This document shows, piece after piece, positions 39,283 through 41,458 of a stretch of 64,000 nucleotides of DNA. Below the pieces are notes generated by a model that saw only the letters and a list, made by a program, of their open reading frames with translations, searched no databases and was not told the origin of the DNA. Position 1 is the first letter of the stretch. Each line of letters opens with the position of its first letter. Position numbers and translations under genes: made by a program. Source of the DNA: an uncultured Alphaproteobacteria bacterium (GTDB lineage: Bacteria > Pseudomonadota > Alphaproteobacteria > RF32 > CAG-239); assembly GCA_944392205.1 (NCBI GenBank), contig CALXVV010000012.1, forward strand, positions 403 through 64,402, given 5' to 3'.

Positions 39283-39412
39283 CTGGTCAGCGACCAGCGG
39301 CATGACTTAGCTGTTATCCGCAAGACTAAAAAGCCGCTCCTCACAAAGCGGCTTTTTACGGCTTGCTGGCGCAAGTGCCTTAGCCAAACAATTTCTGCCC
39401 TCTTACAAATAA
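39283..39412. repeat. Mosaic palindromic repeat cluster, copy T (left bracket of the SAA-like cargo)
   Basis: CTGGTCAGCGACCAG, ACTTAGCTGTTATCCGC, then a 57-nt stretch (39322-39378) identical to 41365-41421. Related spacer continues up to ...CCCTCTTACA. Confidence 0.85.
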
Positions 39413-39467
39413 AGTGACCGAAGTGACTTAGTTTTGCTCTTGTCAATACTCCTAGTTATCCACAGAT

Positions 39468-39496
39468 TTGACATCGGGGAGAAAAGTTGTTATAAA
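39468..39496 (+). promoter_or_regulatory. Predicted strong sigma70-type promoter upstream of the SAA-like gene
   Basis: TTGACA, 17-nt spacer, TATAAA. Confidence 0.6.
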
Positions 39497-39527
39497 TTGA
39501 TAAGATGTTGTAACTTATACATCTTAG

Positions 39528-39558
39528 CAGTCTGTTTAAGCAAACAGGCTGTTTTTTT
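39528..39558 (+). terminator. Intrinsic terminator 1 within the leader of the SAA-like gene
   Basis: CAGUCUGUUU-AAGC-AAACAGGCUG followed by UUUUUUU. Confidence 0.7.
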
Positions 39559-39568
39559 GTTTTAACCA

Positions 39569-39593
39569 CCCGCCTATTTGGCGGGCTTTTTTT
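39569..39593 (+). terminator. Intrinsic terminator 2 within the leader of the SAA-like gene
   Basis: CCCGCC-UAUUU-GGCGGG(C) followed by UUUUUUU. It ends 15 nt before the start codon. Confidence 0.7.
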
Positions 39594-39608
39594 ATAAGGA
39601 AAAAGCAT

Positions 39609-40379
39609 ATGTTTGATTTTCTTAATAATCCTTGGGAGACTGACGAACAAAAACGTCAAAAACTGAACAACTCTCAAACACAAACACCTTTTAACGGACA
39701 ACAAACCCCAATGACACCGAGACAAATGGTGGAACAGGCTTGGGACCAAAGTGTTGCCAAACAAGAAGCTAAAGAACAAGCTTATAAGCCGATGGAAAGC
39801 ATGTCTACTCACGATGCCGTCAAATATGCCTGGGATAAAAGCCTCGCTGAACAAGAAGCTAAAAAAAACTTAAATAAAATGCCATTTTTACGAGCTGACA
39901 AAAGAAATTCTATAGGCAACATGTGTGAAAGTTATATTCAAAATACCTCTAACATTAAATGGAATAACTCTCCTTTAGAACAAACTTTAGGTGCTATAAA
40001 GGACTATTGTCATAACTATATTGATATGCGGAATGCAAATTTACAAAGCTCTCCCCAAGAACAGAGAATAGGAAAGTCAACAGACAATTATTATCATTGC
40101 AAAGCAAACTATGAAGCTGCAAAAAGAGGCCCCTTTGGCAGTGCTACGGCAGCAATACTTGGATATGGGCGTGAAATTGCTGATGCAGCACATAATTATT
40201 TGGGAAAAGGACTCACGTGGAATGATACAAAAAAAGATTTTCAAAACGACTTAAATGTTAATCGTGTGGGCAGACAGCAGGCTGCTCAAAATATCTACAA
40301 TTCAGCACAAGAAGCATGCGCTCAGTTTAAACCAAACAAACTTAATGAGGAAGATGAATATCAAAAATGGTATCGATAG
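39609..40379 (+). CDS. Serum amyloid A (SAA)-like domain protein with a repeat-containing N-terminal region
   Basis: YIDMRNAN...STDNYYHCKANYEAAKRGPFGSATAAILGYGREIADA...DLNVNRVGR aligns by eye with vertebrate SAA: [46 protein letters not shown]...DQAANEWGR. The N-terminal region carries a tandem ~30-aa repeat (QAWDQSVAKQEAKEQ / YAWDKSLAEQEAKKN). I see no signal peptide. Confidence 0.8.
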   Translation: MFDFLNNPWETDEQKRQKLNNSQTQTPFNGQQTPMTPRQMVEQAWDQSVAKQEAKEQAYKPMESMSTHDAVKYAWDKSLAEQEAKKNLNKMPFLRADKRNSIGNMCESYIQNTSNIKWNNSPLEQTLGAIKDYCHNYIDMRNANLQSSPQEQRIGKSTDNYYHCKANYEAAKRGPFGSATAAILGYGREIADAAHNYLGKGLTWNDTKKDFQNDLNVNRVGRQQAAQNIYNSAQEACAQFKPNKLNEEDEYQKWYR

Positions 40380-40440
40380 GAATTTCTCTTGCCAAGATTA
40401 AATAACTAAAATATCATTACAAAAACATTGGAAGGGAAAA

Positions 40441-41172
40441 ATGAGCGGCTTCTGGAATGAAATAGGAATAATCCCCTTTATAATTATAAACGGGGCTTTG
40501 TTTGTTATCTACTCCTATCTGCTTAGGAGGCATTTGGCATCTTCGCAAAAAATCTATATCTATGATTTTTGTGTCGGTGCCACCGCCATTTTTCCTATAA
40601 TATTTCCCTCTTTGTCAGTAGTTATTGGCTCTTGCTTTTTGGTGGTATTGTTGTTTGGTCTTTTATGCCTGAGTTTTCCTCAAATATCTCCTTGGTGGAA
40701 GTTTTTAAGCAGATTAAATAAAATAACCTTATTTTGCCTATTGTTATTTTTCGTTTCCTGCTTATTCATGGAAAATGTTGGGATTGAAAAAATATTGTTG
40801 TTATTCGGGCTTTTTTATTTTGGGATTTTTTTCATCATCTTTATGGGGTGTCTTAGACGACAAAACATAGATTACGCCCAAAGGCACTGGAGCTTTTTTG
40901 TCGGGCAAATTTATTTTAATATATATTATATTTTTGTTGTTCTGATTGCCCTAGCTATATCCGTAATTTTTATCAGCTCTTTGTTTCTGATGTTGACTGA
41001 CCCTCAAAAAATTTCCGAAGAAAGATGCTTGGACATTGGTTATTGTCCGCAAGGAACTGTTCTTGACAATTGCTTCGATGATGGCAAAAACTGTGTCATA
41101 GATGAGCAAAATTGTATAAAACTGCAGGGAAACTGGCTGGCTGATTTTAATGTTTGTAAACTTCCTAAATAA
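40441..41172 (+). CDS. Polytopic membrane protein with a cysteine-rich C-terminal tail
   Basis: 243 aa with about 6 hydrophobic helices. The tail RCLDIGYCPQGTVLDNCFDDGKNCVIDEQNCIKLQGNWLADFNVCKLPK has 6 Cys in ~50 aa. It is co-directional with, and 61 nt downstream of, the SAA-like gene. Confidence 0.75.
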   Translation: MSGFWNEIGIIPFIIINGALFVIYSYLLRRHLASSQKIYIYDFCVGATAIFPIIFPSLSVVIGSCFLVVLLFGLLCLSFPQISPWWKFLSRLNKITLFCLLLFFVSCLFMENVGIEKILLLFGLFYFGIFFIIFMGCLRRQNIDYAQRHWSFFVGQIYFNIYYIFVVLIALAISVIFISSLFLMLTDPQKISEERCLDIGYCPQGTVLDNCFDDGKNCVIDEQNCIKLQGNWLADFNVCKLPK

Positions 41173-41174
41173 CT

Positions 41175-41422
41175 CTGCCAGGCTGGTCAGCGCTGCCGAA
41201 GCCGGCAGGGGCGTTACTTAGCTGTTATTCGCTCAACTCACAAAGTTCGTTTCGCTAGCGCACGTGCCCAGACGACGGCCTGGAGCGGTGCGGACGCGCA
41301 CTCCGATAACTCCGCTGTAACCCGCCGGTCAAGCGACCGGAGGCTTAATCAAGCTGTAACTCGCAAGACTAAAAAGCCGCTCCTCACAAAGCGGCTTTTT
41401 ACGGCTTGCTGGCGCAAGTGCC
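41175..41422. repeat. Mosaic palindromic repeat cluster, copy C (right bracket of the SAA-like cargo, upstream of leader RNA copy C)
   Basis: CTGCCAGGCTGGTCAGCGCTGCCGAAGCCGGCAGG, ACTTAGCTGTTATTCGC, CCAGACGACGGCCTGG, GTGCGGACGCGCAC, CCGGTCAAGCGACCGG, CAAGCTGTAACTCGC, and the terminator-like hairpin AAAAAGCCGCTCCTCACAAAGCGGCTTTTT. Confidence 0.85.
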
Positions 41423-41458
41423 ATAAGCAAACAATCTTTGCCCTCTTACATAAATTAA

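Follow-up and report, generated by a model that had tools for sequence, protein, structure and literature searches.

A Prok-SAA Toxin-Immunity Cassette Predicted to Be Portable between REP/Terminator/Spacer Slots in Front of a Multicopy Leader RNA

How do two genes come to lie between two direct copies of a repeat, exactly where the promoter of a multicopy leader RNA would normally begin? The question is raised by a locus between tgt and phoB in a window of 64,000 nucleotides (the whole stretch of DNA analyzed, part of contig C12) from an uncultured alphaproteobacterium, the genome of which is 93% complete and comprises 1.38 Mb in 45 contigs. Judged from its sequence, the region 39408-41172 represents one toxin-immunity cassette from a family of polymorphic toxins, in which a short toxin with a serum amyloid A (SAA)-family tip is followed by a candidate immunity protein; this cargo is single-copy in the genome and has a GC content of 0.33-0.38, compared with about 0.5 in the flanking tgt. 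Polymorphic toxins themselves are known; new here is a prok-SAA cassette that is portable between slots made of a repetitive extragenic palindromic (REP) unit, a terminator, and a spacer in front of a multicopy leader RNA. The assemblies compared in the following are all metagenome-assembled genomes (MAGs) or metagenome contigs, often broken in these repeats.

An exact-run computation gave an identical segment of 61 nt in both copies (39319-39379 and 41362-41422), slightly longer than the 57 nt of the original prediction, which lies within a direct repeat of 119 nt (39289-39407 vs. 41332-41450) with 87% identity. Each copy consists of a REP-type hairpin unit, a bidirectional terminator, a small hairpin, and a spacer of 33 nt. 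The terminator of the left copy, A5-GCCGCT-loop-AGCGGC-T5 at 39328-39357, is strong and bidirectional, and the terminator folds have z-scores of -3.65 and -4.10 (+ strand). The spacers, GTGCC...CTCTTACA at 39375-39407 and 41418-41450, are related to each other and account for the 30 or so similar nucleotides that had been predicted next to the identical segment. Past the final ACA the right copy continues into the promoter of leader RNA C (TTGCAT at 41459-41464), as expected, whereas the left copy runs from 39408 into unrelated DNA beginning AATAAAGTGACC; the homology stops exactly after 39407 (the estimate had been about 39412), and the TTGACA/TATAAA promoter and two genes expected beyond it are present (open reading frames [ORFs] 39609-40379 and 40441-41172). 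An nhmmer profile of 14 leader copies from this genome, which recovers the three leaders of the window at E values of about 1e-42, has no match in 39408-39700 even at E<=10, and the homology therefore ends at the junction instead of merely decaying. The same profile rules out the cassette 5' region as a diverged leader RNA.

A tandem duplication of the leader-RNA module, with the left leader and its gene then replaced or diverged into a toxin operon, would also leave two direct copies. The upstream module is indeed complete in the left copy until 8 nt short of where the -35 box would stand, and both units consist of a promoter, a structured leader with terminators, and an ORF. We nevertheless consider this origin highly improbable, given the lack of similarity to the leader profile in 39408-39700, a cassette promoter that is a near-copy of one upstream of the terminase gene of a phage-like element (see below), and the recurrence of the same junction at a second locus and in tandem arrays.

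The comparison of related genomes provides alleles of the site. The distance between the phoB stop and the tgt start is at most 94 bp in 20 of the 22 genus loci that have both genes, typically 47-68 bp, but 3249 bp here; because this gap is so small elsewhere, we treat 39223-42471 as an island, consisting of the cassette, leader RNA C, the ORF of 72 aa, and the gene of a 147-aa lipoprotein (a gap of <100 bp, as in most of the genus, has no room for the latter). The island is present in four close genomes, among them G067, G061, and G024. G067, in which the tgt region is 97.7% identical, provides the empty-site allele for which a search in relatives had been proposed: tgt is followed by one repeat and the leader promoter, and the toxin N-terminus is found nowhere in this 100%-complete assembly. 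G061 carries the same SAA cassette at the tgt-phoB site. In G024 the shared 5' region and N-terminus extend to window position 39870 and are followed by a VgrG3-type tip with its immunity gene; the homology to the window resumes exactly at the right repeat.

A second slot, behind smr, is empty in the window and occupied elsewhere. It holds a lysozyme cassette in G024:C40 and in L093, and two cassettes in tandem in L082, each with its own spacer in front. The second cassette of L082 is a remnant: its promoter region is fused, by an internal deletion, to the last ~60 nt of a VgrG3-type toxin gene, and an intact orphan immunity gene follows, identical in 156 of 157 aa to the one of G024. G024 at tgt and L082 at smr have a block in common that consists of the VgrG3-type immunity gene and the right repeat. 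The only homology that the tgt-phoB and smr-ABC loci have in common is the repeat, the leader, and the small ORF. Nine occupied junctions, from at least five assemblies, all read ...TGCCCTCTTACA before the break and AATAAAG after it; a tenth, in L093, reads ...CTCTTACA followed by AGCCGAG, and differs only just after the break. With an empty site in G067, an allelic cassette in G024, a second slot, and nine identical junctions, the insertion or module swap at a fixed junction proposed in the original prediction is supported. The two chromosomal slots provide a natural series of empty sites, occupied sites, allelic tips, and a tandem array with an orphan antidote, which shows the spread of very small toxin-antidote units, both inside and among closely related strains, in a lineage of uncultured Alphaproteobacteria; dispersed repeats and a multicopy RNA gene alone would serve as the homology arms for this spread.

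The REP/terminator part recurs in the genome at >20 dispersed loci, of which most have nothing to do with toxins or leaders; the REP units are short, intergenic palindromes with stable hairpins, arranged as mosaics (families D5 and D6). The spacer, by a census of the genome, precedes a leader promoter at 13 sites and the cassette once, at 39375; apart from the cassette it is found almost only upstream of leader promoters. It is nonpalindromic and has no resemblance to dif. Several types of REP "tails" stand just left of it (the terminator, CTCAACTCACAAAGTTCGTTTCGC, GGTCGGCGCGCTAATCGG, or CCCGCTGGTCGGGGTGCTGG), and the occupied junctions include three different REP variants at this position, the spacer alone being constant. 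One might suppose that REP/terminator units gather for reasons of their own, such as termination or selfish spread, and have no part in mobility; recombination in the flanking core genes and the constant 5' region of the cassette would then be the sole source of its variation. The breadth of the repeat family would fit this, as would the variation of REP mosaics between close strains, the SAA-immunity pairs of the paralogous type on contig C17, which lie in a phage head module without these repeats, and the distant family members, which, L010 excepted, have no spacer or leader within 1.5 kb. We find it improbable nonetheless: tgt-phoB and smr-ABC hold the same cassette type and share only repeat, leader, and small ORF, so the flanking core genes cannot have mediated the transfer; the tip swap in G024 regains homology exactly at the right repeat; and the G024 tgt and L082 smr loci share the block of VgrG3-type immunity gene and right repeat.

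The crossover points offer a closer view of the exchange. In G024:C40 the resident, locus-specific spacer (GATTTTGGGTGCCATAATC...TTTCTAAACAA) still stands beside the leader, and the left copy is of the incoming type throughout; the exchange appears to start in a REP unit behind smr and to end past the terminator, before the resident spacer is reached. L093 has a left copy that is chimeric within the spacer. The crossovers thus seem to fall at different points in different strains, in REP units in G024:C40 and in the spacer in L093. We lean toward movement of the cassette by homologous recombination of incoming or paralogous DNA, rather than integron-like integration, as the probable explanation. 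The left arm would be formed by REP unit, terminator, and spacer, and the right one by the repeat with the leader RNA and the small ORF (86-95% identity between loci; families D3 and D4); the ORF of 72 aa together with the leader could serve in this role. A swap of tip plus immunity gene would use the constant 5' region as its left arm and the right repeat as its right arm. Exchange through repeat arms would leave direct repeats around the cargo automatically, and the bidirectional terminators would keep transcription of tgt, of the toxin operon, and from the leader promoter apart.

The fixed junction invites another explanation, namely site-specific integration with the 33-nt spacer as the attachment site of circular cassettes, in the manner of an integron or of an Xer-dependent (integrative mobile element exploiting Xer, IMEX) element; the enzyme could be Xer, the serine recombinase on contig C3, or one from a phage-like element or an unassembled contig. 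This would account for a junction ...CTCTTACA that is the same in each of the ten occupied sites, whether at one locus or the other or in a tandem array, for a spacer of its own before each cassette of the L082 array, and for the restriction of the spacer otherwise almost entirely to positions upstream of leader promoters. The crossovers of G024:C40, where the resident spacer is on the right and the left copy is incoming, lie however outside the spacer, and that of L093 falls inside it; the spacer is neither palindromic nor dif-like; and the cassettes bring their own promoter. Because a 5' region of 460 nt is common to all cassettes (96-98% identity), an invariant left junction can moreover be inherited by common descent, which explains the fixed junction equally well. 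The genome-wide search for a cognate recombinase, suggested with the original prediction, found two Xer-like tyrosine recombinases (C2 and C26) and one small serine recombinase (C3), all on other contigs; the two Phage_integrase-family genes encode 312 and 314 aa and are called XerC/D-like from their size and number. As predicted, contig C12 holds no integrase or transposase, and the 93%-complete genome has no match to RAYT (PF01797), rve, IS110, DDE_Tnp_1, or IntI-like genes. A dedicated recombinase was rejected as an explanation on this search, and site-specific integration seems to us unlikely. The idea of a gene-cassette-like integration site, put forward in the original prediction, is accordingly not upheld by a dispersed REP family with three variants at the junction, varying crossovers, a cassette promoter, and no cognate recombinase.

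Several points weigh against the homologous exchange of a toxin-immunity cassette that we favor. With 93% of the genome assembled, a recombinase could be hidden in the remainder, and a site-specific mechanism, too, would give a left junction as precise and invariant as this one. The single repeat of G067 has three informative patches that alternate between left-like and right-like, and these are compatible with gain and loss of the cassette alike. As the MAGs break in repeats, some of the junction reconstructions could be affected by repeat collapse. Toxicity and immunity are predictions from homology and gene pairing only; the N-terminal region of the toxin has no match in Pfam or PHROG and resembles no known trafficking domain, and regarding delivery, neither TssC (the sheath) nor Hcp of a type VI secretion system (T6SS) is encoded in the genome.

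Among mobile units that are already known, integron cassettes resemble those described here as one- or two-gene units inserted serially at a recurrent junction next to a promoter region, with tandem arrays; unlike them, the present cassettes have no adjacent IntI and no palindromic attC, carry their own TTGACA/TATAAA promoter, and show variable crossovers. REP sequences and bacterial interspersed mosaic elements (BIMEs) are dispersed palindromic repeats, and the short hairpin units found here are likewise dispersed and form mosaics at gene ends, although the genome has no RAYT (Y1 transposase). The minimal mobile elements of Neisseria are exchanged by homologous recombination between conserved flanks; our cassettes are similar in being exchanged without a dedicated recombinase, but differ in that their arms would be repeats and a leader-RNA module instead of flanking genes. 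With arms of this kind, the cassette could move between nonhomologous loci.

The predicted toxin matches the Pfam family SAA (PF00277) with 52.8 bits (cut-off 30.8) and, by phmmer, eight SAA sequences in the PDB. In an AlphaFold model, residues 90-250 have a predicted local distance difference test (pLDDT) score of about 90, and the N-terminus one of 40-62; SAA1 or SAA3 structures take all of the first seven places among the Foldseek matches in the PDB (probability 1.00, target template modeling scores 0.79-0.84). HCKANYEA..RG and N218-x-x-G221-R222, the latter an sNxxGR motif, are kept by the homologs, among which N218 is invariant and G221 nearly invariant; the window toxin reads NRVGR. The tip is a member of the SAA family, with a helical-bundle SAA fold in the model. 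For prok-SAA the sNxxGR motif has been described at the H4 active-site position, and the domain, which is already listed among the Lipocone toxin tips in comparative genomics, is predicted to cleave head groups of lipids or lipid carriers on the outer side of the inner membrane (Burroughs, Nicastro and Aravind 2025, PMC12419801).

The polymorphic nature of the family is evident from the first 86 aa of the toxin. In sister genomes and metagenome contigs this N-terminus (about 89-98% identity) is joined to other tips: a T6SS_VgrG3-like_C muramidase (E 7.5e-37), Phage_lysozyme, Tlde1, and two domains without a Pfam match. The constant N-terminus, which the model predicts to be poorly ordered, is previously undescribed and is a putative delivery or translocation part. 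The SAA-like gene and its membrane partner had both been recognized in the original prediction, whereas the polymorphic toxin-immunity nature and the exchangeable tips had been missed. The toxin family, at N-terminal identities of at least about 90%, was found only in a narrow clade of uncultured Alphaproteobacteria; a pattern scan for the left end of the cassette matched only two sister MAGs among genome contigs and had no match in JGI metagenomes. The bacterial SAA-like domain hereby joins muramidases and an effector of the L,D-transpeptidase type as an exchangeable cell-envelope toxin, which fits the recent prediction that SAA descended from bacterial lipid-targeting toxins and provides a compact pair for testing such activity. 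Delivery by a T6SS, a candidate suggested by the VgrG3-like and Tlde1 tips, was ruled out, as neither TssC nor Hcp is encoded in the genome.

The second gene of the cassette is likely the cognate immunity gene, as indicated by conserved pairing. The six-Cys domain of its 243-aa product, predicted to be extracytoplasmic, recurs with all six Cys invariant in the genes directly behind two other SAA-tip toxins on L089, a contig unrelated to the window (E 1e-17 to 1e-20); one of these carriers is a multipass protein and the other has a single-pass anchor. A structure model of the 243-aa partner was unusable (alignment of four rows, pLDDT 48.8). The neighboring or downstream gene changes with the tip among the SAA, VgrG3-type, lysozyme, and P0006 cassettes compared: the partner is a 157-aa signal-peptide protein on the opposite strand for the VgrG3-type tip, a 270-aa Cys-rich secreted protein for the lysozyme tip, and a 292-aa membrane protein for the P0006 tip. 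Cys-stabilized membrane or periplasmic immunity proteins are also described as companions of Lipocone toxin tips (PMC12419801).

The contig L089 (GCA_964632165.1, CAZWCZ010000078.1) encodes three short toxins in tandem, two with SAA tips and one with an unknown tip, each with its own small partner gene; they have a common N-terminus of their own, MFYEDEEEKRRQ..., different from the constant one of the cassettes. An acidic-then-basic N-terminal motif, E-x-[DE]-E-[QE]-K-R-(R)-Q, is found in the L089 toxins, the window toxin (ETDEQKRQK), and the C17 paralog (ETPEEQEKRRQ).

The cassette resembles what has been described for prok-SAA in its SAA Pfam match, SAA fold, and NRVGR motif, and in a membrane partner with a conserved Cys-rich domain. 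The immunity domain described in that account is a helix plus four strands with four Cys, to which the six-Cys domain of the window partner might or might not correspond; the constant N-terminal region and the genomic slot come in addition to the prok-SAA features considered here (PMC12419801). In polymorphic toxin systems, C-terminal tip and immunity gene are exchanged by recombination (Zhang et al. 2012, PMC3482391). Our cassettes agree with these in a constant 5' gene body, variable C-terminal toxin domains, and a cognate immunity gene downstream, in the exchange of toxin-immunity pairs as a unit, and in orphan immunity remnants (PMC3482391); they differ in that the toxins are very short (256-297 aa), without a recognized trafficking domain, repeats, or a secretion-system marker, in a genome without a T6SS, and that the whole gene with its promoter is movable, bracketed by REP/terminator/spacer units and placed before a multicopy leader RNA.

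All cassettes have the 460-nt 5' region in common; in the window, the -35 and -10 boxes are 17 nt apart, and two terminator hairpins (39526-39553 and 39569-39585) precede the start codon. Without a substitution in any specified position, the motif GTTATCCACAG-n3-TTGACA-n1-CGGGGAGAAAAGTT occurs at exactly two places in the genome. The second site, C17:23268 (- strand), lies upstream of a 502-aa terminase gene and is followed by a terminator-bearing leader as well; the presence of leader terminators at both sites suggests a shared regulator or antiterminator. Weaker matches are found ~1.8-2.6 kb upstream of the portal gene in G014, G022, G061, G067, and G070. The C17 cluster (15400-24700) is a phage head/packaging module in which portal, major head protein, and terminase were recognized through PHROG; 48 of the 56 genus genomes have one copy of its portal gene, and the module looks like a conserved, possibly domesticated element rather than a sporadic prophage. 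Neither Pfam nor PHROG gave a match for an ORF of 149 aa (C17:23274-23723) that lies upstream of the shared promoter; it and a CI-like ORF of 268 aa are candidate regulators encoded by the element. A paralogous SAA-like toxin of 200 aa, the tip of which is 44% identical, lies between the portal and the head genes with a transmembrane, Cys-rich partner of 134 aa, and this toxin-partner pair is kept at nine genus loci. BLASTP of the 243-aa partner against the 134-aa one was not significant, and the SAA toxins of the cassette and C17 types appear to be accompanied by different immunity families.

The promoter/operator motif and the layout of leader and terminators indicate that toxin expression is probably coupled to the resident phage-like element; such coexpression is proposed because the genome has no T6SS sheath or Hcp. 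The toxin might be released by lysis through the element, as a diffusible bacteriocin of the colicin M or pesticin type, or be packaged into particles. The constant N-terminus and the promoter shared with a phage-like head module thus point to an undescribed route of delivery or release in a genome without a T6SS. Extending this, the cassettes might be satellites of the conserved phage-like element, possibly one like a gene transfer agent, sharing its late-type promoter/operator and leader-terminator arrangement: they would be switched on with particle production, the toxins would be packaged or released by lysis, and the >13 leader-RNA upstream modules would be landing pads at which particle-borne cassettes are fixed by homologous recombination. 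Taken as a whole we hold this to be a doubtful, if tentatively possible, reading; if true, it would amount to a self-contained spread and firing of interchangeable toxins without a secretion system or recombinase.

Bacteriocins of the colicin M/pesticin group are small, soluble toxins that combine a part for uptake at the N-terminus with a C-terminal domain active against lipid II or peptidoglycan in the periplasm; the immunity protein is anchored in, or integral to, the inner membrane, and the modules are polymorphic (PMC5821083, PMC5277000, PMC4661593). The cassette is similar in its small predicted toxin with a tip that would act on the envelope, its candidate membrane immunity protein, and its polymorphic modules, but it has no sequence relation to colicin M, and no TonB box, receptor-binding domain, or lysis gene was identified here. 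The sole link to a lysis-capable element is the shared promoter motif, and release and uptake would follow this comparison by analogy.

In the lysozyme-tip cassette of G024:C40 (L047:4067-4245), a 21-nt deletion and rearrangement removes the -35 box TTGACA, and this cassette may be silent because of the loss.

Table 1. Features of the tgt-phoB island, its flanks, and the second slot, in window coordinates.
Feature	Coordinates	Strand	Remarks
Empty second cassette slot (repeat, spacer, and leader-B promoter behind smr)	28788..28930	.	Occupied in G024:C40, L082, L093
tgt (queuine tRNA-ribosyltransferase), conserved left flank	38098..39222	-	Pfam TGT E 6e-157
REP-type hairpin unit of left repeat (CCCTGGTCAGCGACCAG + GCATGACTTAGCTGTTATCCGC linker)	39279..39318	.	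Families D5/D6; copies on many contigs
Left 61-nt core with terminator 39328-39357	39319..39379	.	Exact run and fold
Left 33-nt spacer GTGCCTTAGCCAAACAATTTCTGCCCTCTTACA, junction after 39407	39375..39407	.	Junction alignments
Constant cassette 5' region	39408..39608	+	GTTATCCACAG 39455-39465, -35 TTGACA 39468-39473, -10 TATAAA 39491-39496
Predicted toxin, 256 aa: constant N-terminus aa 1-86 (39609-39866) and prok-SAA/Lipocone tip aa about 125-240	39609..40379	+	
Candidate immunity protein, 243 aa, polytopic membrane, C-terminal six-Cys domain	40441..41172	+	No Pfam match
REP-unit mosaic 3' of immunity gene	41175..41321	.	
Right repeat: REP unit, core 41362-41422, terminator 41371-41400, spacer 41418-41450	41322..41450	.	
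Leader RNA copy C with promoter (TTGCAT 41459-41464)	41451..41678	+	nhmmer E 7.6e-44
72-aa ORF behind leader RNA	41679..41897	+	95% identical over 216 nt to 29140-29355 (family D3)
147-aa lipoprotein-like ORF, last island gene	41993..42436	+	Adjoins phoB in G024, G061, G067
phoB-type response regulator, conserved right flank	42472..43194	-	Pfam Response_reg and Trans_reg_C

At least 14 distinct copies of the leader RNA are found in the genome, many of them at contig ends; a scan of the window at the Rfam gathering thresholds and a tRNA scan gave no match. The Bartonella Brt RNA/Trp regulator modules (PMC5387305), in which multiple, highly similar copies of a structured RNA each immediately precede a small XRE-type gene and the alphaproteobacterial genome is plastic in this part, offer an analog, in their arrangement, of the leader-RNA modules whose upstream region forms the cassette slot; toxin cassettes upstream of Brt RNAs are not reported there (PMC5387305). 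On contig C1, at about 30814 (- strand), the spacer is joined directly to the 3' part of a copy of the 72-aa ORF, without the leader RNA and the 5' part of the ORF, and this is apparently a deletion remnant of a leader module. The leader-upstream spacer exists in a long and a short form (at about 24496 of the window and at several leader copies), which differ by ~20 nt (TCTTTGCCCTTCCGAACAA) flanked on either side by AACAA; slippage or deletion seems to have produced this polymorphism, which lies just upstream of the -35 box.

The phoB-tgt gap is a recurrent insertion point also for other DNA. G059:C10 (L096) and G062:C3 (L097) carry an insert of 2.6 kb with an OB-fold periplasmic protein and a two-component system, G005:C4 (L099) a 415-aa ORF that is peptidase-like by eye, and G048:C18 (L098) only a leader-RNA and small-ORF module. 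Between the 72-aa ORF and the lipoprotein gene, G061 (L044), G067 (L046), and G024 (L043) have an extra 1.8-2.4 kb that is absent here (41898-41992), so that the island varies at a second point; this stretch codes for a Cys-rich (Zn-ribbon-like) ORF of 71-107 aa and an ORF of 243-265 aa, to which G024 adds one of 196 aa.

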